Positions 697-61,395 of a stretch of 64,000 bases of DNA are shown piece by piece. The DNA is from Eledone cirrhosa (taxonomy: Eukaryota), in contig OZ024742.1 of NCBI GenBank assembly GCA_964016885.1, forward strand, positions 119,784,001 to 119,848,000, read 5' to 3'. The position numbers and the translations under genes were made by a program. The number at the start of each line of letters is the position of its first letter. The stretch's first letter is position 1. The notes under the pieces were generated by a model. It was not told the DNA's origin, did no database searches, and worked only from the letters and a program-made list of their open reading frames with translations.

Positions 697-768
697 TTTT
701 CGAAAGAAGCAAGTTTTGTCAGCTGTTTTAATGACACATTTGTGCAAGCTAATTACAGAAATAAAAAG
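697..768 (+). CDS. CACNA2D: alpha-2/delta calcium channel subunit, local exon 1 (VWA domain): FSKEASFVSCFNDTFVQANYRNKK
   Basis: ttttttccAG acceptor and GTTAGT donor; 72 nt, phase 0-0. Resembles vertebrate alpha2delta-1 [23 protein letters not shown] (recalled). Confidence 0.93.
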
Positions 769-2791: not shown

Positions 2792-2881
2792 ATACTTACA
2801 AAGGCTGTGGAAAATCTTACAGCAAGGGATATGGCAAATTTTAAGAGGGGATTTGAATTTGCTTTTAAAGAATTTGAAAAG
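2792..2881 (+). CDS. CACNA2D: alpha-2/delta local exon 2 (VWA): ILTKAVENLTARDMANFKRGFEFAFKEFEK
   Basis: ctAG acceptor, GTACGG donor; 90 nt, phase 0-0. Matches [28 protein letters not shown] of alpha2delta-1. Confidence 0.92.
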
Positions 2882-4710: not shown

Positions 4711-4836
4711 TTCAGGAATAAGTCTAAACAAAATGGAGTAGGAGCTCAATGCAATGAAGTTATTATGTTACTTACTGATGGTGGGACAGATAATGCTAAA
4801 GATGTTTTTGATAAATATAATTGGCCAAATAAGACG
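4711..4836 (+). CDS. CACNA2D: alpha-2/delta local exon 3 (VWA, MIDAS Asp): FRNKSKQNGVGAQCNEVIMLLTDGGTDNAKDVFDKYNWPNKT
   Basis: ttatAG acceptor, GTATGT donor; 126 nt, phase 0-0. Contains the family hallmark CN.xIML.TDG..F.KYNW. Confidence 0.96.
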
Positions 4837-7725: not shown

Positions 7726-7804
7726 GTAAGAGTGTTCACGTATGCTGTAGGTCCTACTGCAAATCCTACATCTGCTATACGTTGGATGGCCTGTAGTAAT
7801 CGAG
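7726..7804 (+). CDS. CACNA2D: alpha-2/delta local exon 4 (VWA): VRVFTYAVGPTANPTSAIRWMACSNR(G)
   Basis: taaAG acceptor, GTAATC donor; 79 nt, phase 0-1. VRVFTY.VG...WMAC.N motif. Confidence 0.96.
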
Positions 7805-8525: not shown

Positions 8526-8575
8526 GATATTTTTCACAGATTCCAGCTATGGGTGCTATACGATCCAAAGTTCAA
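8526..8575 (+). CDS. CACNA2D: alpha-2/delta local exon 5 (end of VWA): (G)YFSQIPAMGAIRSKVQ
   Basis: ttttcAG acceptor, GTAAGT donor; 50 nt, phase 1-0, completing the Gly codon split from exon 4. Matches GYYYEIPSIGAIRINTQ. Confidence 0.95.
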
Positions 8576-10118: not shown

Positions 10119-10749
10119 CTAAGACTAGTTGTTAAATACATTGCATAAGGGTAATTTCTTTAGTAGTAAACAAATATTAAATAGTGGTTTGTTTTATGAA
10201 TACTCTGTTTGGAAAGGTTATTTATTCTGACAACATCAAAATGAGATGACCTACTGCAAATGGAATTATTCCAATTTATGGCTTTAGTTACTTAATCTGC
10301 TACATTAGAATAATTTTCAGCTGTTTTTTTCCTCTTTGCCTATATAAAATGTGTTTTGTAAAACATATCTGCTCTTTTTCATCTTCAATTAAGACATCAT
10401 TTCACATTTGTCAATTCCTGTTTTTAAACCCTGTATAAAAGATTGCATTTTTAGGAATGACCTTATTCCATGCATGTTCTATCAAGATGTTTTAAAACAT
10501 TAAAATAACTTCTTTGTAAGCATAAAATTGAGTTCCTGTCATAGTTTTTAACTCTAAAACAGTTTGTAAACATTCACTGTAGGTCAACCCGTTTTCTTCA
10601 GAAAATTAATAAAAAAAAAAAGAGAAAACGTACTAATTCAGCTGTTACTATTACTGCTGTTATTATTACTGCATTTACTAATGTTCATACTGCTATTACA
10701 ACTAACAACTATCAGTATGCCTAACACTACAAATAATAATAATAATAAT

Positions 10750-12365: not shown

Positions 12366-12449
12366 CACTATATAGGAGTTCTAGCTCGACCTTTGGCCCT
12401 TAATCATTCTGAATACATCAAGTGGGCTGGGGTTTACCAGGATAGCCAT
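12366..12449 (+). CDS. CACNA2D: alpha-2/delta alternative exon 6A: HYIGVLARPLALNHSEYIKWAGVYQDSH
   Basis: tattccAG acceptor, GTAAGC donor; 84 nt, phase 0-0. Matches EYLDVLGRPMVL...VQWTNVYLDAL. Confidence 0.93.
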
Positions 12450-12849
12450 GTAAGCTGGCTATTACCTCTTCCTTCTACAACTTATATTCCTATTCACTAG
12501 TTATCAACACAATGCTATGCCACATGTTTTCTTTCTTTTCCTACTGCTTGTTTGCCTTACGCTCTAGTTTCTTTACACAATTTTATATTTGTCTCTTTTT
12601 TTTATGTGTGTGTGTATTTTTGATCTCTTTCTTTCCCCACATACAACTGCTTGCATATTTTTTTATGAAATATTTTTTGTATGTATTTACCATCTGTTGT
12701 TACACCTTTTGTAAGTGTGTTTCCTGCTGTCTTTCTCTACATACTGCATTGTGGCACTATCTTTATTGATGTCAAGTGTACCTGATTTTAGCCTGAACCA
12801 AAAAACAAAAAAAAACAAAAAATGATGTGTGCGTATTTCTTTTATTATT

Positions 12850-13205
12850 TTGCTGGTTTCAGTCATTGGCTTGTGGCCATCCTGGAGCACTGCCTTCAAG
12901 GATCTTCAAGCTTCATTTTGACCTCTGTACTCATTTCAGTCTAGTATTTATTTTATTGAAATCTATTTATCAAATAAATAAGTTGTGTGTTTGACATAAA
13001 GGGACATAACACACTGGTTTACACTGGTACACACACACATGCAACATCTACTAAATTTAAATTCAAATATATAGAATTACTATCATTCCACTTAAAAGCA
13101 TCAACAGCTTCAGTAGAAGACACTTGCCTAAGGAGCTGCACAGTGGGATTGAACCCTCAACTATTTGCTTGTAAACTTCTAAACCACATGGCTAAGCTTG
13201 CACAT
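12850..13205 (-). mobile_element. degenerate SINE
   Basis: gtttcagtcatt...gccatcctggagcactgcc and agacacttgcctaagg...cagtgggattgaaccc; related in reverse to 16560-16860. Confidence 0.55.
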
Positions 13206-13254
13206 ATGCATAATGCTGAAGGAACTAGCTTGTCATGTTCCTTTTGGATGATGT

Positions 13255-14664
13255 TTTCATAGTCTCTGTTCAAGAAAAGACTAGCATGAGGTGTTTAAGT
13301 TTTAAGTGGATGACACTGTGCCATGGAGCATTAAAGAAGATTAAATGGTGGTATAATTTACCTGTGTTGTAATAAGTGATAGTAAGCTTATCCTTAATAT
13401 AAAAGAAAAGAGAATGGAGATATAACTCTCCCTTTGGTTTGATGTATTTTCATTGCAGTTTGTTTGGCTGATAGTGGAGGGTTTAAAATTTCCTAACATT
13501 AAATTGCATGTTGCTGTCTTCAGGCTACTTGTTGCTTTTAAGTCTCATTGTGTGTATGTAACATCATCCAGATTCTTGATTGCCTGTGATATTTTCGTAT
13601 CATCAGCATAGCTAGTGAGAGCAGCTGCCTGTATAATTGAGTGTATGTCTGAGTGAGCTACTACAAACAACAGCTACTCTAAGTTCCCTGGTGGATTCCA
13701 TTGACTATTTTATTTCTTTTGTGAGGACACCACAAATTGCAACTGCCTTACTTCTGCCTCTTAAAGAAGTCATATAGCACTTCTCTAGTTTACCGACTAT
13801 GTCGAGATCTCACAGTTTGTGACATATTATTCTATGATAAACTTTATCACAGGGATTTGTAAAGTCACGATAATATATCCACTTTTGATATCCACCTGAT
13901 GATAGCTCTGTTTACCTTTGGAAGAGAATCTGTAGTGGTTTTGCTAAATCCTATTGAGGACTAGTTACTGAGTTTAAGCTCATTTCATCTGTGTATGTTA
14001 TTTCATTTTCCTCCTTAACATCCATATAATTGAAGATTACCATTTCTCTATGTAGAGAAGTAGAATCAAAGAACTCATCTGGCTTATTTATTAGTTATTT
14101 ATGTGATCTCTCAGTTTGAAGTAGCGACTCTAACTGACGTAACTCTGATCTCTGACCTATGCACTCTATCAAGCAACGTTACTTCACAGACCCTGTTGGC
14201 ATTATATAAATTTCTTAAGTTATATCAATGTCTTTTATAAGGACTTTCAGACCTATTTGGTTTGAGGATCTCTTTCTCATTAGCTCTTTCCGTGTGGAGA
14301 GCATGTGTGGTTTCCATCAGACCAAACATTGTTAGTGCAATGTTGTGGTCCAAGAAAATCATCTGTGCCACCTTCACACTTGAAGCTGAAATCGAGAATA
14401 TTTTTACCTCTCATTGGATAAAGTTGTATTTGTTCCAAGAATAACAAGTTAGATAGATAAAGCTGAGACCCTGATTCTCTTTTGTTCATACAGCAACATT
14501 CCTGAGAGAATGTGACCTTCAGGTCATTTGAAATTGGAGAGCTTGAAGTATCTCAAGAGAAGTATTGAAGTGTTGATCCAATTTAGTCAACACACCCTCC
14601 ATTTTTCAAAGTCTATCTTCAAGTATATCTTTGATTTGAAACATCTGGTAGATATGTGGGAGCC

Positions 14665-14714
<50 letters not shown>

Positions 14715-14780
14715 ATAAGTGGCAGTTACTCACAAGCTACAGATTTGTTCAAGCCTGTTAGTAGGCTTCTTGCTCTTTTC
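13255..14780 (-). mobile_element. old degenerate CR1/L2-type LINE fragment
   Basis: Minus strand YADDT (tcgtatcatcagcata near 13595-13610), collinear with the intact LINE at 49.5-52.6 kb; many stops. Confidence 0.6.
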
Positions 14781-15035
14781 TGTCTAAAACTGAATGCTAA
14801 TTGTATTGTTTAATATATATATATGATGTTTATGTATGTAAGGCATCTAATATTATAAGTGTGTTTATCAGCTTGCCTATGTATTTAATGTTTGATTAAT
14901 ATTAACATTGCCAAAATATCCCAGAGTGACATTCTACATTGAATGCATTACACATAGATTATGAAGGATTATAGTAGAAATGTGGTTTCATTAATGTTCT
15001 TTTCTCTGAAGTTCTCTCTGCTGTCTCTCTCTGAG

Positions 15036-15069
<34 letters not shown>

Positions 15070-15092
15070 TATATACAGGTACACACACACAT

Positions 15093-15127
<35 letters not shown>

Positions 15128-15129
<2 letters not shown>

Positions 15130-15430
15130 CTAGGGCGGATAAAATTCCCGAGATCCATGGACGAGTTCTCTCCAGCGGTCTCTGTCCCTCATTATCGCTG
15201 CCATGTCCTTCGTCTCCAACAGACCAGTGTACTGTCCTTAGGGCATCAACATACGTTAACCTTGGTCTTCCTCTTCCAGTGTGTCCATGTAGGGGCTCCC
15301 ACAGGAGCACTGAGTGCAATGTCAACTCTGGATGTCGGTGAGCATGTCCAGCTAACCTCAGTCTCCTCTGTGTCACTTTTGAGCTGACTTTTGGGAGGCT
15401 CCCATACAGCTCTGAGTTTTTCATCCTCAG
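15128..15430 (-). mobile_element. RTE LINE 3' fragment
   Basis: RRLRLAGHAHRHPELTLHSVLLWEP...GRGRPRLTYVDAL; ends in (TA)n. Confidence 0.85.
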
Positions 15431-16210
15431 TGTATATATAAGTTGTGTAATGTTTGTATTAAATAAATATACATTAATCAGTATATATATATATATATAT
15501 AGTAGATATGTGTGTAACTACAGTTATATGCAGTTCACTGGTTAAAGCACTCAATATTGTTACAAGGGTTCATCTCATGTGAGGTTTATATTTCAATATA
15601 CTCCAGGATTAAGGCAACTGTAATATGCAGAGTGTAAATACAGGTAAGCAGGAACAAAGTCAAAGTTGCACCATAAATAAATGTGCCTATGAACTTGAAC
15701 TCACATATCCAATGAGATGTTGATGTGAAGTCGAGCCCCGATTATGATCAGAACCTGGGCTGATCAATATCAAAACAATTGTTATCTGCAATAAAGTTTA
15801 TTTATCACAATTGTTTTGATATTGATCAGCCCAGGTTCTGATCATAATCGGGGCTCGACTTCACATCAACATCTCATTGGATATGTGAGTTCAAGTTCAT
15901 AGGCACATTTATTTATGGTGCAACTTTGACTTTGTTCCTGCTTACCTGTATTTACACTCTGCATATTACAGTTGCCTTAATCCTGGAGTATATTGAAATA
16001 TAAACCTCACATGAGATGAACCCTTGTAACAATATTGAGTGCTTTAACCAGTGAACTGCATATAACTGTAGTTACACACATATCTACTATATATATATAT
16101 ATAGTTATTTAATGTATATTTATTTATAGATATATATAGTTATTTAATGTATATTTACTTATAGATATATATAGTTATTTAATACAAACATTACACAACT
16201 TATATATACA
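15431..16210. repeat. long palindrome (foldback)
   Basis: 15500-15782 is the reverse complement of 15807-16089 with no mismatch seen and a 24-nt spacer. Outer arms 15431-15465 and 16176-16210 also pair. Confidence 0.95.
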
Positions 16211-16449
16211 GTTACTGGCTAGTTTCATGTAAGGTGTAGATTACTTTATTACAGACAATATATTTGCATCTACTGAGGAAATTTTCAAACCTTAATGTTC
16301 ACAAACAGTGGATCAGTAAATTGTAAGAAAAAAAAAATGAGAATTGTATATTATTTGCGAGTAGAGATTTAAAATGATATTTATTTTCCAATGAAATAAT
16401 CTGCACAAAACATGAAACCAGCCAGTAACCTTATATAATGTTATATTTA

Positions 16450-16520
<71 letters not shown>

Positions 16521-16559
16521 GTAGGCACCTACATGTATGTATATAAGTGTGTATCTTTG

Positions 16560-16860
16560 TGGATGCAAGCAAGTCCAAATAGTTAGGAAGTTTGCTTTGC
16601 AATCATACAGGCCTTGGTTTGATACCACTGTGTGTACTCTTGGACAAGTGTCTTTTACCATATCCTTGGGTCGACCCAAGCCAGTGAGTAAAATTAGATA
16701 GCAAGAAATTGTGTGGGATTTTGTCAGATAGATTGTGCCTGTTATTCCATAGTCTAGCCTTGTCATATAAAGTAAGAGAAGGGTACATGTGTCCATGGGA
16801 TACTCATTCACCTGCACGATGATTAAACAGCTGAGTGCGCATCACTGAAACTGACAGAAG
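16560..16860 (+). mobile_element. degenerate tRNA-derived SINE
   Basis: gttaggaagtttgctttgcaatc...ggtttgataccactgtgtg...ttggacaagtgtctt. Confidence 0.55.
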
Positions 16861-17857
16861 ATCCACCATGTATGTGCCTGTATGTTTGTATATATGTATA
16901 TATAAAGATATATATATATATCATCATCACTGCTTAACGTTTATTTTCCATACCCGCATAGGGTAGATGGCCTGTCAAATTATGAAGTCAGCCAAGTCAA
17001 GTGCCTATGTCTTGTTTATACAATCTGTTGAGATTTTTGTTTTCTATGACTGGATGTCCTCCCTAACATCAACCATATTACAGTGTGTACTGGAAGCTTT
17101 TTTTTGTGCTACCACCACTACCACTTTACAACGTGGAATGACACATTTTTAAAATGTTTATACCAATAGTTGTTTTCTTAATATCATACATTATTATATT
17201 GACCCTAGTACTATTTTATTGACCATTCATTAATCTCACAAGGCTAAACACATAGCTCACTTCTTGACCAATGGTTGTGAAAACAATGGCGATCCCATGC
17301 TGTTTAGAACAGCCAAATAAAAACCTTGTCAGAATAAAAGCTTTGGCTGGAGTTAACATTTGAGACATTGTAATGCAAGATAATAGTTTTATTAAAGAAA
17401 CAAAGTACATCAAACCTAGAGCTGCACTGTAAACTGCCTATTAAAATGTAGTTTGAAGTTATGTGTAATTATAATCAGTAATATGGATATAAGGTATATG
17501 CATCATATGAGATACACAGATCATTGAGTTATGATGCATAGTTGTGAACAAACTCAATATGAAAAGAAAATCTGGTTTTACAAACCGCTAGTGTAAACCA
17601 TCTCATAGTATACTTGTCTATCCTAGATAAATGCTTCATATAGCATGCTCTGCCAATTGAACTATGTCTCAAATATAGTGTTGGTGGAAACGTTTTGCTG
17701 CAACCACTACATTAAAATGCACACAATCAGCAGTCATAACTAGGCTATGCTGTCAATGCAATATGAAAGATGTGCAAGGACCAGTACTCTCACCAGTACA
17801 TTAGTGCTTGATGCTTGATGCCAAACCTCTCACTTTGAATAGGGGTTTTCTGCACTC

Positions 17858-17898
<41 letters not shown>

Positions 17899-18105
17899 AT
17901 ATATATATATATATGGAATAAACTTCTAGAAACTACAGTTATGGCAATCGTAGTGGTTTAAATGGAAGTTTTTCAAAAGCACCATACATTGTTACTTTCA
18001 TATACAATAATGAAATGAGCCATTGATTGGGTTGTTGAACCCTACTCTTTCTGCCCGTATATTCAAATATGTTGCGATAAAAACAAACCGTGTGTGTGTG
18101 CACAC

Positions 18106-18396
18106 CAGTGGTTCTCTAATTGTGTGGCATAGTATACTGATGTGCCATGAAATATAGTTAGATGCACTGAAAAAATAAAATATCTAAAAAGTACAAAAAA
18201 TAAAAACTGAAGTTCTAAATATAAATTCTTTATCTATGCCTCATTTATTGAATAAAGAAATATTTTAAATCACTTATATTTAAAGGTTAAAATATATAAA
18301 TACCATGATTTGATATATTTTTTATTTATGTAAAACATGTGCTAAAATATATCTATTTGCTGTTGAGTGTGAGTAAAAAACATTTTAGAATCACTA
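18106..18396. mobile_element. hAT(Charlie)-like MITE
   Basis: Imperfect terminal inverted repeats cagtggttctctaa and ttttagaatcacta. Confidence 0.45.
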
Positions 18397-19423
18397 ATGC
18401 ATATATAAAATAGTTTCTGATAAAATAGTGACATGTTTAATGCTTTTAGTCTAGTTTAGAAACTGAGGGCAATAAAATATATCATTGGTTTTATTTGAAT
18501 ATAAATGTATCATCTATTTTTTTCTTATAAATATTCATAAGTAATACATTATCTGAAAAGAATAGGTTTCTTAAATTAAATTCAGTTTATGTAAAAGAAT
18601 TTCTGAAATATAAATATTATATTACCTTCAACTTAACTCTGGAGTGATTTCATGTTAAAGTTGAAATATTCATAAGTTTACATATACCAAATTAATGCTA
18701 TATATCTTTTGATGTTTTAAAAATATTTGAGTTATATTTAGTTTCTTATTTTTTCTAAACTTTCTTAGTATCTAAGCAAAATGTAAAACGTATTGGTAAT
18801 CCATTGTATGAAAAGTATTTTATTCACAACATAGTCTTGAGTAGTTTTTTAATATGTAGCATGTATATTAGAGATATTTGTTAAATACATTAGGGTGAAA
18901 CAAATATATTAATTTAACATTAATTATATCTGTTTTAAATATATTACTCAAAGCAACTATTCAATTATATATAATTATATCAGGCTAAAACAGTTTCTCT
19001 TAAACCAGAGTTCCAAGCACTTTTGTTATGTCCTTTTTCACTTATTATGCTAGTTACCCAGCTTATTTCATTTATTTCTCACTTGCATCAATTATCACCC
19101 CATCATTCCTTTTACGGATCTCACAGATTGGTTCCAAATGAATATCACATAATTGTTATTTAAACATTTGTTGTTGTTTTTTTTTTCATAAATATTCAAA
19201 ACTTTACTTTCAGCTATAATCAAGCCAGGTGCATATCACAGACATTTTGTGATTTATGTTTTGATAATTTCTTTTATTTCATTTAATACAACTTTATAAT
19301 ATTTCACTCTATCCAGACATTTTCTCAAGTTTTTATGTGGATTTTTTTGTTAAAATTTGATTTTATGAATATTTTTTGTTGATGTTTTTATAAAACATTT
19401 TGTTGCATCTGTATTACCTACAG

Positions 19424-19498
19424 GAGTTTTTGAAGCATATGGGTTTTCCAGAAGATGACACTGAACAATTTCATTGGTCTCTTGGACTAGATCGTTCG
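19424..19498 (+). CDS. CACNA2D: alpha-2/delta candidate divergent alternative exon 6B: EFLKHMGFPEDDTEQFHWSLGLDRS
   Basis: ttacctacAG acceptor, TCG|GTAACA donor; 75 nt, phase 0-0, open. Starts E-F-L like E-Y-L, has G-x-P at the G/S-R-P position, then Trp and a D-x-x end. Higher GC than its flanks. Confidence 0.6.
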
Positions 19499-20976
19499 GT
19501 AACATTTAATACTTATATAGCTGGTGAAATTTATAAGTTTAGGGTTGCTTCTACTGCTGCAAATACCCACTGTTTTCTTTTAAAGAAATGTTAATGTTTT
19601 TTTTTCTCTTCTGCTAAAATGAACATTGGCATGTCTTCTCAGTCTATAAGAATCATTAACTTCTTTAGAAATGTTTTAGTAAATAATATTTCTTTCATAT
19701 ATTTCATAAAACTAAGAATACACTACCATATAAGGCTATAATGATGTAAACTTTTCTCAAATATACACAACCAGTAAAATGTTTCAGATAAATTATTTTG
19801 AATATGAATAAGTTTCTTCCCTGAAGACCTTCTGGTGTCCAGTTCTCCTGAGAGTTTGTTACCACAGCACTAATTTTACCTTTCAACAAAGTAATGAAAG
19901 GTAAAGTTTGTGTAACTGAGATTTAAAATCAAATCAAATTACCCATGTATTCACATAGATATATATATGCAAATTTCTGTAAATACATGGCACAACATTA
20001 AGTTTAAAATGTATTTATTATATATATTTGTACATTATTTGAGAAAAATGAACACATAGTTCCTTACTGTATGTTAATTGTATTCTTTGTTTGGTCTGCT
20101 AGAAAATACAGATGATTATTCTAATTGATTTATAAAACTGTAATGGCATGGTGGAATTGCTTTCAGGATTATTATTCAAATATTATGAAATTGTGCACAT
20201 TTGACTGGGTGTGATAATTTTTGGTGGTGGATATTTGATAGTCATCATAATTTAGTAGCTTCTCTGAAACTAAACGTAATTATATGCATATTAAAAAAAT
20301 ATTTCTGTATCTTCTATTTATCTATTCATCATTGCTTCTTCTTTTATCATTACAAAAAGGATCATGATCAACTTTTAAAACATTTTGACTCAAATTGGTT
20401 TCAGTTCAAAATAAGGTTCCAGCATTGAATTGTTGTACATAATATGAAATAAAATATTCAGTGTCTTCCCTAGAACACAATACATTGCTGGCAAAGTGGT
20501 ACAAACTTATGATTCTTCAGTTACAATCTAATCTCTATTCACAGTCATTGCAAACCTTCATGAATTTTCTCACTCATTTTAACTTTTTGGAGACATATTG
20601 TATTGTTACCTTACTATACTGCTTTACTTTATATCCATTGCAGTATTTAGTCTTATCTTTTTATGTTTTGACTGCATCATATGATTATTGGCAAAATGAA
20701 ACAGGCACCAGGTATGCTGAGATTGTGTATGAACTGATCAGTTAGGTAATACATCTATTTTGAAAGGTCAATTTGGTCATACACTGAACTTTTGTCTTAC
20801 GTTGAAATATTAGTTAAGAGTTAGTGACTTGATTGATAAACAAAACTGTCAAGAAACTAATGACTTATTTGGTAGTTATAGTTATTATTTATATTGAATT
20901 TTTTATCCCTCGAATGAATAAATACAACTCAGACTTTAAATCCTATATGTAAACAGACTAGTTTATTAGTTATATT

Positions 20977-21260
20977 TGTGTAGCTTTCTCTAGACAAAGG
21001 GAAGTAGCTGGAGTTACTTCCTGTTGAATTCTAGGTAGGAATTATAAAAGAGGGAGAAAAGAGACATCTTAGCCTTTTGGCGACCGGCTCTCGGACAGTT
21101 CACTCACGAGCGAGTTTGGTATAATCTTATATCTGTATCGAATTAAATTAGTGGTTGGCCTGCAGTGGTGTTTACCAAAGTAAATAACCCTGTGACCAAC
21201 TCACTAAAGTGGTGACCCCGACATGAGTGATGGTCTGGATGCCAGCGCAAATGGTTGGTT
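20977..21260 (+). mobile_element. LTR retrotransposon 5' remnant: LTR plus tRNA-Trp primer-binding site
   Basis: TG start, TATAAAAG box near 21044, then TGGTGACCCCGAC(A)TGA at 21210-21226, complementary to the tRNA-Trp 3' end (...TCACGTCGGGGTCACCA). Confidence 0.7.
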
Positions 21261-23517
21261 TTAACTGTTTAAGGGAAAGTCTGTTGGTTTATATTATATA
21301 GATATATAATATATATATATGTGTGTTTCTTTTTTCCAGGGCCAAGTTGGCGGGGTGGGTTTATTACTAATATCAACATTTAATTAATTAACAATGATAC
21401 ATTTCAAACATTAGATATCAGTAGAAATAAAAAATTGTCCAAGTAGTTGGGACTCCAGAAAATCTTATTGCTAAACAGTTTGCATATAGGAAATAAGAAA
21501 ATGGTTTTGTATATAACTATGGTAAATGGAGAGAAAATAAAAATTAAGTTTCAAATTTGCTGAATCAGTATTGTTATTATTTAGTTGTGAAGCATTTTGT
21601 TAGATATCAAAGATTCTCGGTAAATTGTTCTGTTAAATAGTTTATATAAATATATAAATATGGGAAAATTAAATACTTGCAATAAATAATAATTGAATAA
21701 GCTGAATGTTTTATATGTCAATTAATTAATTCTATTTGCTCATACAGGCAATGGGCTAAAGGATATTTATATATAACATTAGAGGGGAGCTGCTTCTTAA
21801 AAAATGATCTAGTGTTTTACAAAATAGCTTTTTTTGTTTTCAAAGCACTGTAAGCTTGCTTTATTTTTTTTTATGGAAGTAGGCATTTGGTTAGCAGGTG
21901 TATCTATCATTTTTCCATTGTATCTAAATAGGCTATTTTTAGATGAACATTTGTTATGTCTTTTTTGTCCCTAACATACATGATGCACCCTATTCAGCAA
22001 TTGCTTTTTAAATATAATAAATTAAATATAATAAATTAAATTAGGTAAAATACTGTTTAGTAGTTTGTGAAGAAAATATTATTTCATCAATTCCTCTTAC
22101 ATTTCCTATCCTCTTCTTGCAAGTGGTGAATGGTGACCTTTTGGTATACCTAAATCTTTAAACTATAATAATTTTCTACTTTTTCTGTCTAAAAGCATTG
22201 TTGTTAAGATCTCCAGTGTTTCTCCAATCTTGATAATACAGAACTTTTTTCAGTAAGTTTTTTCCCAACTATATAACAATTTAATCAAGAAGGCTTAAGT
22301 CATATTATTATATACATTAAAGTCATGTTCTTAAATAAATAACAGTATTTTGTTATTTTCTCAATAAGTGAAGTATAAATTTACTGTTTTTAAATAAGGC
22401 CAAAATTATGGATTTAGACACCTTAATGCTTTGTTGTTTACTTTTTCTATTAATCTTCATTATTGTTATGATGATTGGCATGCTGTTAAAAATTTAGTGT
22501 TTGCATAGTTACAACCAATCTACCTCTATTGCTTGGGCATGAGTTATGATATACGGTGCATATAAAGTAGAATGGCTCTTACTAAAACTGAATAAAAATT
22601 TATAAAAATTTATTCTATAATTCCTTGCAAAACTGTTTCTAAAATATGCACTATAAATATTTCTAAAAAATGTATGTTAGAATTTTCCCTACATTTAATT
22701 TATAAGTTATAAACACAAATTGCTTTTGTTATAAATTACATTATTATGTACACCATAATTTAGCTTTTAGTTTTCAGTAAATTGAGTCCACAAACTTAAT
22801 TTCCTTTCTGGTGAAAACTATTTTTCTTGCGTTTTAAAGACACCGAGAGAAAGCTGAATGTAAGAATGTGAGATTTCTTAACCTTTATAGATATAATAAT
22901 TCACAACATTGTAAAAGATATTATCTATATTTAGATATTACCTATTCAACTAATTTTATCAAAAATACTAAACATTTTATTGGAATTAATGCATTTTCTT
23001 AAAACAGCTACAGTAAAACATCTTCTTATGCAGTTGTTGTTTAACCCCAGCTTGACCATGATCAAGCATTCCTATGATCAACAGCATACCAACTATGACC
23101 ATTCCATCTTTTTAAAGGAGTGCATTATCAAATATATTCTTTTATTATAAGATGCTAAGGTTTTATTTGAGAGAGAAATATCTAATCACATAGAACTTTC
23201 CATATTGACTCCCTGTTACACTAATTTTAGATTGAGTTGCTATCATAATATTTATGAAAGTAACATGTGTAATTGCTGATTATAAATTTTTAATTACCAT
23301 GTAATGATTGCAATTAATTGGTTATCTGATGGATAGTAGTATTCAATATCAACTAGCTACAAAAATCTCTATTTCATATGTGTGTGAGTGTGTGTGTGTT
23401 TGAGAGAGGGGGAAGAGAGCAATATATATTAATATCATGTATATCTCTTAAATTGTTTCCATTTGTTGGTTTCATATAAATTGTAATTTTCTTTACCCTG
23501 TTTGATAGCAAATCTTC

Positions 23518-23733
23518 TTAACGCATTCCTGGTTCTACAAAACAAAGCTGTTAATTTTAAAATATTTAATTATAGTTCTAGGTAAGAACTTTTATGTTGT
23601 ATTCCAGACACCAGATAAATAATGAGAAAATTAGTTATGTTACTAAATCATTCCAAATTATTGAATGTCTTCAAAATTATTTGAAAATCATAGACAATGT
23701 ATTCCACTAAAAATATGGTAATGAAAGGGTTAA
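23518..23733. mobile_element. degenerate piggyBac-type MITE
   Basis: TTAAcgcattc at the left end and gaaagggTTAA at the right end. Confidence 0.5.
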
Positions 23734-26700
23734 TTATAATAAAATATAACACAATATGCAGTTGATAAGGTTATACCAAACTTTGACATCTAAATTATTT
23801 TCTTCCTCAGGAAACATGTTAGTTCTTTCAGTTTATCTAGCAAAAGCTTACATTTCATTTTTTCATCATAATTGTTCTCATTTGGGCAAATCACTCAAGT
23901 ACAAAGCAACATTGTATGTACTCAGGTACATTCAACATTGCATGAGGATGTTTGAAGCTTGACAGCCATCCAGCAATGGTAACATTTTGGATAAATCATT
24001 TTTCTAAATTTTTGTTTACCATTAATATTGCTATTCCTGAATTTTATTGCACAACAGAAATAAATGAATGGAAATTATATACTTAAAATAATTAAGCGAT
24101 TGTGTGTACATTGCTTTCTTACACCCTTAGTAAAATTAAATTGAGCAGAAATGATATAGCAATACTATTGTCATCAGCTACAAGGATAAAGCAATGACGA
24201 ATTTAGCTCACTGGAAATACAGTTTGATATGATGCAGTTTGATTTTTTTTCTTTTGAATATAGAACCATTAATAGCATATTTATAATGAACTAGCTTCAA
24301 AAGTAATTGACAAAGAATGAATGAATATTAAAACTATTTAAAAGTTTCAGGTCTATGTTCTTGCGAGGGTCTATGTGCCAACACTTGGTTCACCTTGTAA
24401 AGTCTATGAGCAAACTGCAACAAAAGCTTAAGTTGTAGAAGTGAGAGATAATGTCATAATCTGAAGGTAAAATATTCTACGAATAAGAGACTAATTAAAG
24501 GCCTGGGCTACAATGTCTAACAAGTTTAAAGAATGTTGATTTTTTTTATGTCCAATGCAAAGGAAGAAATTAATTTCATGTTTCAATACTTATTCAATAC
24601 TATTGTGTTGAATGATTGGTAACAAACCTTTTGGTGTGCCATATATACTTGTGTAAGAAGCGTCATATACATTGGAGAACAGGTGACTGTGACTGGATCA
24701 TTGGAAATAAATTTCTAGATTTTGAACTATCTTTTGTTTTCACACAAGTTGAAAGTAAAATTTGTTTTTAGTAACACAATATCTCTGCATTCAAAATACG
24801 AATAGAAAGTATATTACATTCTAGTAGAATTTGAGCAATGAAATCAAAAGATGTGTTATGATTAGAGAGAAAGGCATTCCAATAAACTGGAAATGTATAA
24901 GAATATTAGAATTAATGTGTGATAAAATCATGCAAGAGATGACTATGTGAAAAGTTTACATAAGCTGATTTTAGAAACCAACATAGGATAAAGGATGAAC
25001 TAGAGTTTATCTTAGAAAGTTAGACTACTCACATCAGGTGAGACAAAATTGAAATGTTTGAAATGTCATGCTACAGATCCATCTGCTTCGTGCCAACATA
25101 GGAAAGTTGATGTAAATTATTGATTTTTCTTTTATACGATTAACATTATTAGACTGGTTCGACTTTCTTCAATACATATGTTTTTCATATTATGGAATGG
25201 AAAATTTACGTGATAAATTTTTTGTAGTAAAATCCATTCAATTTTGTTAATAAAAATATTTTTTATTGATAATCCTTCCGGCAGCAAATATATTATGATA
25301 ATCTGTCTGATTGATAATTTTACATAAATTTATTTCATATTTACGTTTAACACTATTAACGTAATCAACTACTAGGCCATATAATGTTGGTTGTTTTGTT
25401 TTTTTAGATTAGCAGGGAGCATCATTAATTTCATACTCAATTTTTTACAATTTTTACTTAGCTTCTCACAAATTATATTCAGTAATGTTGTCCTTATATA
25501 AATCTTAGTTCCCACATTCTGATGTCAAATTCTTTTTATTACCCACGCAGGGAAAACTTCTATTTCTTTCAAGTCCTGAAAGCTGTATGAAATATACTAC
25601 CAGTAATAATTTGAACACCACTCCAACAGAACTTGCTACAATTTAAAGGGTGAGACCTTGAATTATGTGTCCTTTCTAGCAATACATATTTTCTCTTTAT
25701 AAGATGGAAGTTTAAAAAGGAATTGGTTTCTAATCTCAACAGATTGAGCAAACATTTAGAGGCTTCTCCTTTGCTGGCTTCCGTCTCTATGTAGAAGCTG
25801 CTTTGGTGGCAACCATATAGAAGCAAGCATATAGAAGCTTTCTAGTTGGCTTGAGTGACTCTGTTGAAGATTCCTTATTTACTTAAGCAAGTGCAAAGAA
25901 ACTCCCTCATTAGAACAAAAGTAATGATTTACTCCCTTCAACTAATCTGAAAAGTGATTATATATTATGTCTGCTTACTGGTGTGTCTTATATGGGAAGT
26001 TAAAATATTTGTACCTATCTTCCTCACTAAATGTTAAACTCTATAATATAGGACAGTATGAACAAATTTTTCAATATTAAAAAGGGTTTACACTCCTTTG
26101 AGTTCTTTCTATCACTAGGTTGATTCCACTTTGCTTCTAATATTTTTATCATACATTAGGAAGAATTTAATGTTGATGCTTTTAATTCACAAGAGGAAAT
26201 ATAAATACATAGCTTTTTTATGATTATTTATAAAATAACTGTATTAAATCTGAAACTTTCAACAAGTTATTTTAAATAACATAGCCTTATGTTTTGATCA
26301 TATTTCAGCTGACTTTAAACCATTATCTAGTTCCTTCTGATGGATTATTAAATTAAAGCAAACTGATTAGTAACCAAGAAAAAATGAATGCTTTAACATA
26401 CATTGAGGCATTCTATTTTTAGAGCAAAAATCTAAAGGTATAAAGTTATTTGTATTTACTTTGTTTAACAAATGCAAAATTAGCCATGTGTTCAACTCTA
26501 ATAAACAAGTAGTCATAGATTTACATGTTTCTCTATTAAAAGTAATAATGTTCATTCAATTATGTTCTGAATGGATAATTTAAAATATGTGTAAAAGCTC
26601 CAAAAATACTTATCACCAAATATAATAACTGTAGTAACAAATCATTATTCAATTAGTAGCAAAGAATTACTTATATTTATTTAAATTTCAAATATAGCTT

Positions 26701-27983
26701 TAAAAACAAATATGGTTATTCAATCTGATTGTGTTGCTATTTTCTTATCTCTTGTCTAAATATGATTTTTAAAATATTAAGATTTTAATAAGCTATAATG
26801 ATTGTGATGTTAATATACTTAACCAAAGATTACATGGTTTAAATGTTACTATTGCCAGTGTGTTGTGTGTTTAGGTAAGCTGCCTAACTAAAGTTCCAGT
26901 TCTATTTCTCTGAACCAGCTGAAAAATTAAATTGAAAATCAAAATCTAAATTGATATAACTAAATACTGCAAACTATTTTGTCTAACACTAATCTAATTC
27001 TATAAATCCACCACACATTTAAACTTATTAATCATTTGAAATGGTTGAAATACACACAATTGAAAAAGTTACAAAAGTTATCCCAAGGATAAAAGTCAAG
27101 ACTTATTTGATTTACATAGAAATGGGGAATGTTTAAAGGGTTTTCCAGAAAATGTTAGAATAATTCAGCATAAAAATTTCAAACTTTTCATGTTACTAGA
27201 ATATTTCAGAAAAAGTTAAAGATGTAACCATCAGCCTCCTACAAAATAACCTACAACTGTAACTTTATAGCACATGTATGTTTAAATAATTTTAAATATG
27301 CTAAATGCATATTCTAATTTTGAATAAACTTATTCAAATGCTGGCTGACCATTATCCTGTTATAAGATCAGTTATTTATATTATGTTAGTAATATCAATG
27401 ATTAGATTACTTAATTTCCAATTTTGTAATAGTTAATGATTCTACTATTTAAATATATTTACATAAAATGCTTTAGGTTTTGAAATAGTAAATTGTTGAA
27501 TATTATAAATATATATATAGATATTTAACTGAAAATTAACCTATATCTATACTGTGTGGGTGGGAATGGATGTTGGAAACATGAGTTTTGGAACAACTTT
27601 GGAAGTTTTCTATCAATGTTTTCGAATTTGCAGATTTTACTAATATCTGTAAATACTGTCATATTATTATTATACATCAGCGTGAAGGAATTCATATAAA
27701 AAGATGTCTAATTCCAATGATGGAAAGTAGAATCTGCAATTTAGAAAAGCTTAATGGTAAGCTACTGAAATTGCTTTACACATTCATTTCAATACAATAT
27801 GCTTATATGCTTCAACACTATTTGCTTTATATATGTATATATATATATATATATTAATATATATTAATATATATATATTAATATATATTAGTCCAGAAAT
27901 AGCCGTCGAAACGGCTTGAGCTCTGCCGTCAGGGTCATACTTTTTCCTATATAATATATATATATATATATATTAATATATAT

Positions 27984-28076
<93 letters not shown>

Positions 28077-29349
28077 ATGAACACTTATACTGCAGTAATA
28101 TTGATAAAATATTTTGTTTTTAATGATTTTTTTAGAATATTTATATCCATATTCTGTGTTAGACAATCATCAACTCTCTTCACAAGGGGCCTTGTTATCA
28201 TGCCTTCACCTAAATAAATTTGCTGTGAATATTTATATTAAGTTTTTCAGTACTTTTATTTGATACCCACTGATCATTTGATCCACAAATTCTGTTCACT
28301 CCACTCTTATCATGTTTACTGAATGTCTATATGATTGAACTTTTCTCTTTTGCAGAAAAAAATATCTGATCTTCATAATTACTAGTTGTCTTTATAGCTT
28401 ATCTAAACATTCTATCACTTTTGATTTATTATAGATATATCTAATCATATTGGCTCTTCTTTCTAGACTTTGTTGATCATCTATATTTAATGCTTCTTTT
28501 ATGCCTTTTTTTATGAAGAGAAAATCCCACAAACATCAACATCTTTTCTTTGAACATCTCCTAATCAATTTTGGCTTGTATTATTCCATTATGTATTGAT
28601 CAAGACCCTTACATAACATATCTCTTATCTGTATTTTACTATCTTGGGGAAGGATTTTTGCCATAAGACTTGTATGCAGTATCAGCCTTCTCATTTTATA
28701 ACTGCTGCTTTTTAATCAACTCATTGGTTGTATTACTTTTGAAGGCTATCAATATTTGTCTTTGTGAACTTTAGAAAGAAAAACACTCTAACAGTTTCAT
28801 CAAAAACAGTATTTGTTCTTTCCTATATATAGAAACTAACAAGTCATAACTCTGATGCAATTTGCTATCCTAATGAGAGTATGAAATAGTTTCTGTTACA
28901 ATTAGACATATTTCAACTGTCTTATTTATTTTGGTTTGGTATATATTTTTTCTAGTTAAATTGTTGAAAACGTTTTAGTCAAAACTGTGGACATGTAGTC
29001 TCATACATCATGTCTAATTGGAAAGGAAAGAGTTTTAAAGTTTAATACTACAACCTAATGAAAATTTTCCAACGTTTTAATAGCAGAATGTTTCACTTCA
29101 TTACATCAATACCCATACTACTTACCATGTCTGAAAATATCTCATTTGCAATGATGACTTTCTGTACAAAATTCTCATTTCCAGTATTTGATTCTGCAAT
29201 AACGTTCAGCACATCACTTTTATACTTCGAAACAATCCTTCCAAGATCAGCTTTAAAAACTTTCTTAATTTATAACGTGATACTAAACTTCTTTTTCTAT
29301 TTATATATTTTTTAAAAATATAAAATGTTTTATTGTAAAAAATGCAAGT

Positions 29350-29905
29350 GCCTTTTGTGGTTATGAAAACGGAAAAGGCTTTAGGGTCAAAGAAGAATGG
29401 GAAGGGTGATGGGCATAGGGTGCGACAGTATTGGGGCTGTGCTCCATGGACAGGACAATGGCTAGTGTCACCTGATGCAACAGCCGCACCACCTTGCAGA
29501 GCTCCTTCCTCAGATGAGCGGCTGATGTTCTGATCTTGCAGAGGAGCTCAACAATACGGGGTCCAAGTATGCCTGAGGTCTCGACAGTGACCAGTCTGAA
29601 AAGGAAGTGGCCAGACAATCCCCAGTATTTGTTTATCTTCCTTTCCTCTGCATTGCGGGCTGTGGTACCAGGGTATGTGGCCAAAGCGACTAAGTTGGAG
29701 GCGGAGAATGTGTCACAATATGTAGTGTCTAAGATGAGGGATCTACTTCCTTTGAATGGAAGAAGGTAATTCCATTGGGGTGCTTGCCATCTCCAGTTGT
29801 GATGGGAAGCCATCTGTATCGAGGCTCCTTCTCAATATGTTGTTGAGAGCGGCATGATGGGGGAACCAGACTGTGCTCTGATTGCAAGACAGTGGGTGCA
29901 GGCCT
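29350..29905 (-). mobile_element. non-LTR retrotransposon fragment, RLE domain (CRE/NeSL-type)
   Basis: LPFKGSRSLILDTTYCDTFSASN...ARNAEERKINKY.GLS..FLFRLVTVETSGILGP; same type as 7270-7530. Confidence 0.75.
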
Positions 29906-30504
29906 CTTTCAATTGATATATACTGTAATGGAATACTATTTTCTATGTCAAATATTTTGTATAATTTTTTTTATCTCAGTCTTGGGGATATCATAAGGAA
30001 AGAATTTAAGTATGTTTTCTCTCTCCGCAAGTTAGTTGATTTCTATTGTTTATATTACTAATAATATTGCGAATTCTACTGTTTCTATAAGCTTCCAAAT
30101 GTTCGTAAATATTACATAATTTACAAGACACTGGTATTTCAGTGTTAATTGATCATTGTAAACAATTTCATTATTCCACACTCCTTTTTACTATTCACAT
30201 ATATTAAATGGAACTGACTGACATCATAAGGAAAACTATTCTTTAATGTTTATTTAAATAAGTTATAAGGTTTTGTCATTTTTATACCATTTTGAAATTG
30301 CTGCTCTATATAACCTCACTCTGTATCTTGTTTTTATTCAGAACTAACAGAATTGTTTGTCATTATTTTCTTTTTATTAAGATAAACTTTCTGTTCCTTT
30401 TTTTAGAAAGACATTAATGTAAATTCCATTTTTAGTATCGCATTGGATATTTTACAATGTAATACTTTGATTTGGCTAACTTGAAAACCTTGATTTGTTC
30501 AAAG

Positions 30505-30588
30505 GAATATCTTCCTGTTCTCAGTCGACCATTGGTGCTAGACAATGCCAAACACAGTGAGTGGGTGAACATCTATTCTGACAAAATG
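30505..30588 (+). CDS. CACNA2D: alpha-2/delta alternative exon 6C: EYLPVLSRPLVLDNAKHSEWVNIYSDKM
   Basis: CTAAC branch point at 30476-30480, aaAG acceptor, ATG|GTATTT donor; 84 nt, phase 0-0. Aligns with 6A without gaps. Confidence 0.92.
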
Positions 30589-33500
30589 GTATTTATACTT
30601 CATTTGCAAGTATGCTGTTTAGGCAATTACCTGCTTTTATACAGTTAAAATTGCTTGACCAACAACCTAGCATCCATATTCTTGAGAGTCAGTGTGCTGT
30701 TTACTGTTACCTGCTATATATATATATATACATATATATTATATTATATATATATATATTATATTATATATATTTATATATACATATATATTTATATATG
30801 CATATATATTTAATAAGACTGGGTACATTAATGAAAATATTGCAAGACTTTTGAAGTAGATTTGTATTATTGTTTCTTTCTTTATCTCTCCTCTTGCTCT
30901 CTGTTCATTCATTTATATATATATATATATGATTATTGATTTGAAAATGTATTAGAAGTTACTAGACTACATTTCTCTCTAGCTTGGCTCATGATTTTAG
31001 TATTTCATCAGTTGTCCCTAAATTACCTAGAAAGTCTTAAGTTGTTTATTCTAAATGCTCTTTACTTGATTAATACTTTTTAGTTACACTATGTTAAAGC
31101 CAAGCATTTCCAACATAGATTTAATCATTTTTCATTTCATCTTCTCAAGTAACTTAGTCTCTTTGTTATTTGTAGAATGTTTCTTTCACTGTTAGTATTC
31201 AATTCCTCTATGATTCAGTATCTTAAAGTCACATATAAAGACTTTTGCTGTGGAAATCTGTAACATTTCTTAAAGTATATATAATAAAACTTAAAATCAG
31301 TCTACCTCTGTCTCCTCTCCCAGAAGGAAAAGGTGAAAGTTGACTGGTAGAGCTTTCTGAAATTGAACATCATTGAGACAGCATTCTAGCCACAATAATC
31401 TCATATCTATAGTCAGTATGTTAAGTGTCAAGACTTAAAAAACATGGTTGCCATTTTAAACATTGTAGGATGTTTGTTGTTAAAGTTTTGACACTATACT
31501 TATCTGCTGAATATCTTTTAATATCTTGAGATGTTTCCTATATACCTTTCCAAAATATTAAAACAGGGTATAGTATGTCCATATTGCTCTCCTCTAAACC
31601 AACTACTGTATTATGAAGTTTACAGTATAGTCTACACTGTGGTTTAGCACAACTGACCTTGATTAATAAACAATTGCTCAAAATGGTAATGCATTTTGAT
31701 AGCTGAATATATATTTGGATGAATTTACCTCTTTTAGGAGATTTTTAAAAAAGCACAGGCATATAATTCTTTTTCATCCAAATCGAGTGATTATCTTGTC
31801 AAATTTCTTACCACTGCCCTATATGGAAAACACAGTAGCTTTATTATGAATTAACTTAGTACAAGCATTCATGGACAGATCTCAAAAAGATTGAACCACT
31901 GGCAAGCTCTCTCAGACCTTGTGTGATGATATCCATTTTAGCAGTGTATATACATTAGAATGCTCTCTTTTTTGTCAATACCTTTGATTAAGTATAGATA
32001 TTACCATTCTATTAAGACTTTTTCTATGTATCTATCTAGTTTGATGTTCAATTCCATTATGCAGCATCTTAGATAAACTAATATCTTGTGAATGAAATTT
32101 TGAAAAAAGGAACCGTGTAAAAATCCACCAGAAGAATTTCTGCTGTTAGATTTGATACATTGCATGATTTAAAACCTCCACATGAGCCTTGATCTCATTA
32201 TTAAGGATAACTTTGAGGCTCTGAGAAGAAACATGGATGCTAACTATCCCCTTCACCAATATTTGACTGAAATACAATTATGCATTAGAATTTTAGTTTA
32301 AACTTATTCATGGTGGATTAATATGTTTCTAAGAATTTTAGCTAGTTTTGTAGTAAGCCATTTTAATTTGGACTATTTCTTTTAAGTTTTAAAAATGTTC
32401 ATAGCAGATTATATATTGATCCTGCCACGAAAATAAGTTTACCTATAACTAGGACCACCATATCAAGTTTTAAAAGGAATAGCAGAAAGCTTTATGAAGA
32501 ACTTTGTACATGACATTTTCCACTTAATGCTAATACATTGACTATGCTTATACATTTTTATCAGTCATCCTTAAAATAACCAAATATTTCCAGTAGTACA
32601 GAATACAGGCATGTAACTAGCTAAATTTTGTATTCATAGTATCCTAGATTGAGACATTTGTGGCATATCATCTGTAGCTAGATATATTTTTTGTTAAAAT
32701 CCTGCTGAGTCATATCTCTTTAAGATATTAAAAAATAACTTTAATATTGTTTCTTTTTCTTTGTTATGAACAATATCAAGTAGTTACTTTTACATTTTTT
32801 TTTTTAAAGTTTATCTCTTACATAAAAGTAAAATATAGGCGATATATTAGAGACAAATTTTTAGTTTTGCTGTTTTTGTTTTACTCGACGTAAAGTTTAA
32901 GTAGAAATATAAAGTTTTGATGGTAATACTTTTCCCAAGGATATTAACAGGATTAGTAAAGTTAAAGTCTGTATTGTTGATTTGAGATAGCAGCAGTTGT
33001 GTTGTTTACTATTCACAGTATTTTTATATTATTTTCATTTTGGTCTATAGGAATTTTATACTTTGTCGCATTTTCTACTCTTTAAAAATCATTATATTTG
33101 AAATCATTGATAATATTATGATTTTAAAATGTACCCAGTCTTTCTTAACAAAAACATTGCCTATTATGCATGCAGGTCCAAACTCCTTTTTTCCTATCAT
33201 CTTAAACCAGTTTGGTGAGTTCACATTTCACCAAGTTCTGTCATAGCATAATATTTTTCAGTAATACTGTTTGTTGTCTTTTCAATAATATTGTAATTCA
33301 TTATATTTTAAATCCTTTAAGTACTGTCAACTTTAAGTAGATTCTTATCAGTGTGCTATTCAATATGGGATATCAATTATATAATTCAATGTTTAAAAAA
33401 TATAATATACATTTAAAATTTTAATAATTCAACATTTAATAGTTTTAATTTTTTAATATATTGTAACTTAGTATATGAAATATGTGTTGAGTGTACATTG

Positions 33501-52500: not shown

Positions 52501-52633
52501 GGCTGATGCCTTGGGCGTTAAGCAAAAATGTAGAGGCGAGAGTGGATGGTTTTAATTGTTTTGGTGTGTTGTTAATTTGTTTGTTTGTTAATGGCAGCAA
52601 TGGGAGTTTGTGCAGTGGGGTGATAGTGGAGGG

Positions 52634-57864: not shown

Positions 57865-57921
57865 GGGTTAGGCATGGTAACAACTGTAACGTTACCTGTA
57901 TATAACCGAACCTTAGGAGCC
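57865..57921 (+). CDS. CACNA2D: alpha-2/delta local exon 7 (dCache): GLGMVTTVTLPVYNRTLGA
   Basis: tctttcAG acceptor, GTAAGT donor; 57 nt, phase 0-0. Matches ELGLVITGTLPVFN. Confidence 0.95.
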
Positions 57922-58766: not shown

Positions 58767-58844
58767 AACAATCAGACAATTCTTGGAGTGATGGGAGTCG
58801 ACATAACAACAGATGATATGTTAAAGAAAATTGAAAGGAATAAA
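58767..58844 (+). CDS. CACNA2D: alpha-2/delta local exon 8: NNQTILGVMGVDITTDDMLKKIERNK
   Basis: ctttcAG acceptor, GTATGT donor; 78 nt, phase 0-0. NQ.ILGVMGVD motif. Confidence 0.96.
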
Positions 58845-61320: not shown

Positions 61321-61395
61321 CTTGGGCCTCTCGGATATGCTTTTGCTATCAATCGAAATGGCTATGTTGTATTTCATCCAAATTTGAAAATTCCT
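61321..61395 (+). CDS. CACNA2D: alpha-2/delta local exon 9 (Cache): LGPLGYAFAINRNGYVVFHPNLKIP
   Basis: ttttttcAG acceptor, GTAAGT donor; 75 nt, phase 0-0. LG..GY.FAI..NGYV..HPNL Cache motif. Confidence 0.96.

Follow-up and report, generated by a model that had tools for sequence, protein, structure and literature searches.

Does the choice between alternative exons in an octopod alpha2delta gene decide whether this calcium-channel subunit has an intact amino-acid pocket? The question arises from 64,000 nucleotides of the Eledone cirrhosa genome (assembly GCA_964016885.1, contig OZ024742.1, 119,784,001 to 119,848,000, forward strand; hereafter the window, to which positions refer), where a sequence-only reading had proposed that a switched exon encodes part of the amino-acid and gabapentinoid binding pocket. 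The window contains an octopod alpha2delta (CACNA2D) gene, whose exons match alpha2delta of Octopus bimaculoides exon by exon in tblastn and at splice sites. Its orthologues have the domains VWA_N, VWA, Cache, and VGCC_alpha2 (PF08399, PF00092, PF02743, and PF08473), with the VWA inserted in dCache1, structure models of the product match alpha2delta-1 structures, and the best vertebrate matches are alpha2delta-2. Constitutive exons E1 (697..768), E2 (2792..2881), and E3 (4711..4836, with LTDGG), all on the + strand like every feature below, encode parts of the VWA domain, as does E4 (7726..7804), which is also matched by a 4061-nt contig of sequencing run X1. The 3' end of E5 (8526..8575) is the phase-0 donor feeding the cassette, and the constitutive exons resume with E7 (57865..57921), E8 (58767..58844), and E9 (61321..61395, Cache). 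Among the matches listed for one 10-kb stretch downstream, none corresponds to exons 3' of E9. The genome has at least one further alpha2delta-like locus, which weakens the idea that splicing substitutes here for gene duplication.

The cassette comprises exons 6A (12366..12449; 84 nt, 28 aa), 6B (19424..19498; 75 nt, 25 aa), and 6C (30505..30588; 84 nt, 28 aa). Each is an AG...GT exon in phase 0 that leaves an open frame when spliced to E1-E9. Between E5 and E7 lie 385 AG..GT candidates of 60-102 nt without a stop; we scored them against 11 reference peptides, a scan that detects only exons resembling these. The three exons and their nested versions scored 65-155 and the next candidate 23; a possible fourth exon picked by eye near 35660 was outside the top 25. 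Searched by themselves against Pfam, the three exon peptides were too short to return any family. Exons 6A and 6C have 10 of 28 aa in common and differ at 18. The three exons fit a tandem array of paralogues whose phase is equal and whose lengths are close, and 6C is the nearest of them to the single exon of outgroups. Conservation is complete for 6A (28/28 identical in both O. bimaculoides and cuttlefish-type proteins), high for 6C (27/28 and 25/28, respectively), and lower for 6B (18/25 and 15/25). Within 6B, WSLGLDRS is shared without change by the window, O. bimaculoides, and cuttlefish, and the middle is divergent and fast-evolving; an acidic loop of 6B is not conserved in O. bimaculoides. 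The evolution of this middle part is what one would expect if the three exons were redundant duplicates of equal function. We nevertheless regard such redundancy as very improbable, given the invariance of 6A between octopus and cuttlefish and the distinct class signatures found in fixed order over three mollusc classes.

The cassette exon aligns with EYLDVLGR...WTNVYLDAL of alpha2delta-1. The Leu/gabapentin pocket of that protein is lined by Y452, D454, A455, and L456, and Y452 and D493 hold the ligand's amino group (bioRxiv 2022.12.05.519047). Of the 13 residues that line the pocket in ligand-bound alpha2delta-1, the slot occupied by the cassette corresponds to these four, including the motif Tyr. 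Alignment to alpha2delta-1 and its solved structure bears out the proposal that the cassette exchanges the dCache1 pocket's amino-side strand, and the residues at the variable positions line the pocket in that structure instead of pointing away from it. The Tyr and Asp of this strand are among the listed pocket residues, whereas its Trp, which had been included in the proposed motif, is not. The numbering given for the motif residues is correct when counted on the human sequence (Y450, D452, and D491). The motifs lie on the + strand at 12423 (WAGVYQD, 6A), 19475 (WSLGLD, 6B), 30562 (WVNIYSD, 6C), and 58785 (GVMGVD). The last of these is in E8, making its motif Asp (58800-58802) constitutive as had been claimed, and E7 bears the pocket Thr equivalent to T463. 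We also searched for the upstream RxW half-motif, and found it in the same gene, 3.9 kb upstream of the window (F-D-V-R-R-R-P-W-Y at G000:C3:119780026-119780085); Arg and Trp are present and the first position of YxxxxRxW is Phe.

The alternative exons differ at the motif Tyr. Both 6A (Tyr 12435-12437, Asp 12441-12443) and 6C (Tyr 30574-30576, Asp 30580-30582) keep Tyr-x-Asp, and have the Y[x27-34]D half-motif with 34 residues between the Tyr and the E8 Asp. This half-motif is missing with 6B, an exon devoid of Tyr that has Gly at that column (19484-19486) and keeps the Asp (19490-19492). From these sequences we lean, with some reserve, towards the reading that exon choice gives from one gene either an intact pocket (6A or 6C) or an altered one (6B), and is not a fine tuning. 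The cassette, which presumably arose by tandem duplication before the split of cephalopods, gastropods, and bivalves, would thus offer three in-frame versions of the post-VWA segment with the motif-Tyr strand. Forms with 6A or 6C are predicted to accept small amino acids only, and the 6B form to have weak or no affinity for them: 6B would fold with Asp and turn in register, and the loss of Tyr would lower binding of the ligand's amino group. The weakest step is the last, in which the state of the pocket would alter how CaV1/CaV2 channels are trafficked or how far their current is enhanced. For the pocket reading, mutations of other motif residues (R241A and D491A) abolish binding of the drug or its effect, and current is also reduced by R241A (PMC8915833). 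Amino acids occupy the pocket with no demonstrated effect of their own (PMC9901441), and free amino acids are not known to influence trafficking, which speaks against this reading.

The earlier suggestion that splicing could tune ligand binding may apply to the Tyr contrast of 6B. It is weak for the pair 6A and 6C, in which Tyr and Asp are retained by both exons and two adjoining pocket positions vary freely among 6C orthologues. Of the 18 residues at which 6A and 6C differ, just 2 are at pocket positions and 16 are outside the pocket. The two exons probably diverge less in the ligand they select than in surface loop and glycosylation.

How general is this pattern? The three-exon cassette has already been published and is common across molluscs. 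In its available part, PMC5818475 tabulates it for Aplysia, oyster, and octopus, and the trio of mutually exclusive exons that it places between VWA and Cache is the same as ours (Octopus QHY..DSH for 6A and QEF..DRS for 6B; oyster entries QEY..DSL and QAY..DPR). That part of the article, which predates the 2022 motif, presents the cassette as a sequence observation without reference to the pocket or to function, and we found no link between cassette and pocket in the open-access literature searched. Among mollusc exons assigned by hand to classes A, B, and C, in species that are related, [WF]xxxYxD occurs in all 16 last-position (C) exons and the WxxxYxD strand in none of the 22 middle (B) exons. 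The B exons still keep Asp at -3 (20/22), an aromatic residue at -8 (20/22), and I/L/V at -6 (19/22). One B row (P0071) has a Tyr in the Tyr column of the MAFFT alignment. The order A-B-C is constant in all double-exon gene models seen, and this order and the class signatures are common to three mollusc classes. Between cephalopod 6B and the B exons of gastropods or bivalves there is no detectable similarity (the best score is 28, and a spider exon reaches 26), and their orthology is assigned from position and end pattern.

The same comparison gives some weight to an alternative, namely that the cassette is kept for protein-level reasons (a VWA-to-Cache linker helix, an exposed loop, or glycans setting partner binding, synaptic targeting, or folding), with the pocket changes as a by-product. 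The location of most A-vs-C differences outside the pocket points in this direction, as do the octopus-cuttlefish conservation of 6A, which includes the loop, the N-H-S sequon of this exon, and the distribution of N-glycosylation sequons (7/18 A, 8/22 B, and 2/17 C exons). An alpha2delta-2 splice variant outside the motif alters synapse formation (PMC9901441). Furthermore, the motif Arg is Gln (RRQSWY) in 14/14 gastropod proteins printed and all three exon classes are still kept. Retention of the cassette alongside a degenerate classical pocket argues against the pocket reading. The variability of the A455 site among C orthologues (H, Y, K, S, or R) and the absence of a B-to-E7 join in cuttlefish-type proteins also speak against it. 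However, a surface-loop role does not explain why B loses the Tyr yet keeps the adjoining Asp and hydrophobic positions, nor the Tyr-x-Asp retained in every C exon. We therefore consider the protein-level alternative a real contender, but an unlikely one.

Gabapentinoid binding, as named in the sequence-only reading, is not supported. In the constant half of the pocket V209 is replaced by Tyr and Y238 by Phe, substitutions to which the drug insensitivity of alpha2delta-3/4 has been attributed, and gabapentinoid binding is therefore unlikely. Where a gabapentinoid-type pocket (alpha2delta-1 and -2) has Val 209, Tyr 238, Ala/Thr 217, and Ala 455, we find Tyr, Phe, Met, and Ser/Arg/Lys. The Eledone subunit is thus predicted not to bind gabapentin. 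The gabapentin-insensitive vertebrate alpha2delta-3 and -4 have V209Y and Y238F in common with the Eledone gene, and A455S in common with 6A; they also have Phe at the first position of YxxxxRxW. While vertebrates vary the pocket via separate genes, the Eledone gene would do so via an exon. Relative to the dCache_1AA motif of alpha2delta-1 (PMC8915833; bioRxiv 2022.12.05.519047), isoforms A and C have the same split Arg/Trp/Tyr/Asp, and the model of isoform C has the same fold, but Phe replaces the first Tyr, Tyr replaces V209, Met replaces both A217 and Y219, and the amino-side Tyr is on a switchable exon and missing in 6B. Splicing in the Cache domain also occurs in mammalian alpha2delta-1 (regions A, B, and C), where the variant without C has lower gabapentin affinity (PMC9901441). 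Those regions are loop insertions away from the motif, whereas the Eledone cassette exchanges motif residues themselves. Other invertebrate channel genes switch a core site by exons, such as Lymnaea Cav3 (exons 12a/12b) and the NALCN selectivity filters, according to the available parts of PMC9694082 and PMC3557258. These switches alter the ion selectivity of a pore subunit, as tested for Cav3, whereas the one in Eledone concerns a predicted ligand site in an auxiliary subunit.

The alpha2delta amino-acid pocket is the target of gabapentin-type drugs. A broader and rather doubtful extension of the pocket reading is that, in molluscs and some other lophotrochozoans, an old cassette gives one gene subunits with different ligand pockets. 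Splicing would then be the cell's means of setting its CaV channels to answer to an extracellular amino acid or not, or, via the Tyr-less form, to another small ligand. If true, splice-chosen pockets would be direct evidence for a physiological sensing role. Pocket-intact and Tyr-less forms on one backbone, across mollusc neuroscience models, constitute a natural three-way comparison, with the gastropods that have Gln for the motif Arg as a built-in control.

Exon 6B raises a further possibility. Its donor is followed by 31 open codons and a stop (19499..19594), and 27 of the 31 residues are identical to the tail of the octopus-type record P0289, with a frame-keeping gap. This read-through could represent either a terminal version of 6B or an intronic element that is conserved. 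Cephalopod 6B might then be mainly an off-ramp, ending the transcript or destabilising the fold, and giving a secreted truncated alpha2 without delta/GPI anchor or a poorly trafficking subunit. None of the three cuttlefish-type proteins with B (P0018, P0022, and P0026) joins it to E7: all end in a different read-through tail, 18 residues past the B donor, and two of them (477 and 439 aa) are Logan records spanning many upstream exons. The AlphaFold models of isoforms C and B, one job per isoform, could be read likewise. Isoform C matches ligand-bound alpha2delta-1, as the pocket reading would have it (TM 0.80 to 8FD7; exon pLDDT of 72-86), whereas the register of isoform B could not be placed: pLDDT is below 50 over residues 439-476, and the confidence of RRRPW is 49, against 79 in isoform C. 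However, the B-type rows of the alignment are unlike cephalopod B, one protein in this modelling (P0002) has an additional 13-residue insert, and the low pLDDT may stem from the few similar rows. Moreover, O. bimaculoides X3 and an older model have B joined to E7, as have the B isoforms of gastropods and bivalves. The tails of octopus and cuttlefish are not related to each other (475 of 1000 shuffles reach such a score), and read-through can be unspliced intron. An off-ramp as the main role of 6B seems improbable to us.

In cephalopods, annotation of other species indicates one cassette exon per transcript. The RefSeq isoforms of O. bimaculoides use 6A (X1 and X5), 6B (X3), or 6C (X2 and X4); none of the six has two cassette exons and one has none. 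Exon 6A is also found in cuttlefish proteins, and 6C in Argonauta and cuttlefish. Two cassette exons occur together in 0/11 cuttlefish-type Logan proteins. Several gastropod and bivalve gene models join two, and double inclusion stays in frame. Among Eledone reads, the contig of run X1 matches, of the listed pieces, only E4, a pattern expected of a spliced transcript. No exon junction was found in these reads, and run X1 has no cover on 12388-12558 and 18900-21000, which gives no evidence either way. Runs X2-X4 look genomic and span 6A continuously, and X2 also spans 6B. The introns between the cassette exons are of 7 and 11 kb. Six duplex tests for docker-selector pairing gave none that clearly beats shuffles (the best was matched by 1 of 12), and the flanks of the cassette exons have no 9-mers in common. 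The YGCY counts downstream of 6A (6 copies) and 6C (5 copies) rank with the highest 1.4% and 3.1%, respectively, of background windows, a result to be set against the 110 flank-motif pairs tested.

The middle of an octopod CaV alpha2delta gene occupies the window (G000:C3:119784001-119848000, 28% GC). The peptide of constitutive exon E3 gives a 95% match to the alpha2delta of Argonauta and O. bimaculoides, and tblastn places the exons of the O. bimaculoides protein in order over the window and the preceding 10 kb. Between E5 (ending at 8575) and E7 (starting at 57865), which border the cassette, lie three alternative exons of one slot: 6A (12366-12449), 6B (19424-19498) and 6C (30505-30588), all of phase 0 with AG/GT ends. 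Among 385 candidate mini-exons scanned in this interval, only these three score like known exon peptides. The frame stays open with a single exon, with none or with any pair, and a search of this locus for an exclusion mechanism found none.

The cassette exon aligns to EYLDVLGRPMVL...WTNVYLDAL of alpha2delta-1. According to the accessible part of the gabapentin structure report (bioRxiv 2022.12.05.519047), 13 residues line the pocket (rabbit numbering: W207, V209, Y219, W225, Y238, R243, W245, Y452, D454, A455, L456, T463, D493), with the ligand amino group held by Y452 and D493. The cassette supplies four of the 13 (452, 454, 455 and 456), which read Y-D-S-H in 6A, Y-D-K-M in 6C and G-D-R-S in 6B; the equivalents of T463 and D493 are on E7 and E8. 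The Tyr-to-Asp spacing is 34, within the Y[x27-34]D that defines the second half of the split dCache1 motif in the available text of PMC8915833, and the upstream half, FDVRRRPWY, lies in the same gene 3.9 kb 5' of the window. Given this mapping, spacing and upstream half, the structural claim of the sequence-only reading, that the cassette encodes part of the amino-acid pocket, therefore holds. Judged from sequence, the cassette is real and conserved and swaps four predicted pocket-lining residues, one form being without the motif Tyr.

The same reading had called the pocket gabapentinoid, and this part is not supported. In the constant half, positions 209, 217, 219 and 238 carry Tyr, Met, Met and Phe, respectively; bioRxiv 2022.12.05.519047 attributes the drug insensitivity of alpha2delta-3/4 to V209Y and Y238F. 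The excerpts available of PMC9901441 invoke a bulky residue at 217, and report docking in which alpha2delta-3/4 admit small amino acids only. Val209 is confined to the vertebrate rows of our alignment. All three isoforms are thus predicted to be drug-insensitive. AlphaFold, proposed as a check with that reading, modelled isoform C well (mean pLDDT 81; 72-86 over the exon; TM 0.80 to 8FD7) but did not place exon B in isoform B, where pLDDT is below 50 over 439-476; the cause may be thin support in the alignment and not the biology.

All three exons are used, as seen in O. bimaculoides RefSeq and in cuttlefish-type proteins. Of RefSeq isoforms X1-X6, X1 and X5 carry A, X2 and X4 carry C, X3 carries B, and X6 has no cassette exon. 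Among 11 cuttlefish-type Logan proteins, five have A, three have C, two end in B read-through and one leaves the frame ahead of the slot; none joins two cassette exons. No junction was seen in E. cirrhosa reads; one run is RNA-like, but its contigs reach neither 6A nor 6B, so this result is uninformative. Identity to O. bimaculoides and to the cuttlefish type is 28/28 and 28/28 for 6A, 27/28 and 25/28 for 6C, and 18/25 and 15/25 for 6B, where conservation is restricted to both exon ends. As B was seen only as a terminal piece in the cuttlefish-type proteins, and as 27 of the 31 codons 3' of its donor (19499-19594, one frame-keeping gap) are identical to another octopus-type record (P0289), more than for 6B itself, 6B could be an off-ramp to a truncated secreted form, which we nevertheless regard as improbable. 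This stretch could serve as the tail of a terminal exon or as a splicing element; the read-through tail that ends cuttlefish-type P0018, P0022 and P0026 is unrelated to it.

Among the members listed, at most 15 per cluster, gastropods and bivalves have 3 or 4 alternatives for the slot, the nemertean Lineus has two and the annelid Dimorphilus likely two, and a single exon type is seen in amphioxus, hemichordate, lamprey, tick, spider and millipede. Gene models joining two or three exons never depart from the A-B-C order of the window; their existence also shows that those annotations do not follow strict exclusion. After manual assignment of classes, [WF]xxxYxD occurs in 16/16 C, 0/22 B and 5/17 A exons, counts that are not independent events because the species are related. 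Of the 22 B exons, 20 retain Asp at -3, 18 retain Pro at -2, 20 retain an aromatic at -8 and 19 retain I/L/V at -6. Window 6A and 6C score best against their own class, 6B likewise within cephalopods only; that the exons are redundant we hold to be very improbable. Some bivalves (oysters, mussels; P0063, P0064, P0183, P0282) have a fourth, 25-residue exon type with an intact WxxVYxD, which was not found in the window. Amphioxus (P0076, P0077, P0224, P0226) alternates the preceding exon instead (YYVDIPAV vs YFLEIPAV).

We lean, with some reserve, towards exon choice setting an intact against an altered pocket. The proposal that splicing tunes ligand binding is weakened by several observations. 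The motif Arg is Gln (RRQSWY) in all 14 gastropod proteins printed (P0036-38, P0041, P0042, P0046, P0048, P0050, P0055, P0056, P0058, P0061, P0062, P0071), and gastropods still keep the cassette; in mammals, the consulted part of PMC8915833 states, mutating this Arg abolishes drug binding. Free Trp or Phe left alpha2delta-1 trafficking unaltered in the section available of PMC9901441. In addition, 16 of the 18 differences between 6A and 6C fall outside the pocket, and 6A has an extra glycosylation sequon relative to 6C; both would suit a surface or partner role, which we consider possible but rather unlikely. Gastropods combine Gln at the carboxyl-binding Arg with His at the motif Tyr in most A exons (6/7 gastropods), and in snails and slugs the pocket is possibly re-tuned.

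The cassette is not new, because a 2018 Aplysia CaV2 paper (PMC5818475, in the part accessible) already lists three mutually exclusive alpha2delta exons in the VWA-Cache interval, with octopus A and B ends. No report of its overlap with the motif was found in the open-access literature. Known mammalian alpha2delta splicing affects loops outside the motif, whereas this cassette carries motif residues themselves; the closest working analogy comes from NALCN and snail Cav3, in which alternative exons are reported to switch ion selectivity.

Elsewhere in the genome, L009 (G000:C4:186586184-186586330), L004 (G000:C45:53687-53833) and L011 (G000:C9:11121818-11121970) are exons that belong to at least one additional alpha2delta-like gene and to a VWA_N-like gene that is more distant. 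Within the window, two 300-nt arms in the 6A-6B intron (15486-15785 / 15804-16103) form a perfect inverted repeat around an 18-nt spacer, which may be a hairpin, a young element or an assembly artefact. YGCY, the motif of muscleblind-type regulators, clusters 3' of 6A (six, 12450-12699) and 6C (five, 30589-30838), weakly after multiple testing. In the 6C-E7 intron, a higher-GC minus-strand stretch (~49540-52600) flanked by long AT microsatellite tracts looks like a LINE-type reverse-transcriptase element. A tandem array of ~12 copies of a ~55-nt unit lies 3' of E3 (~4975-5640), and very high-copy short repeats cluster 5' of 6A (10678-11703), with summed contig depth >100,000 in most bins.
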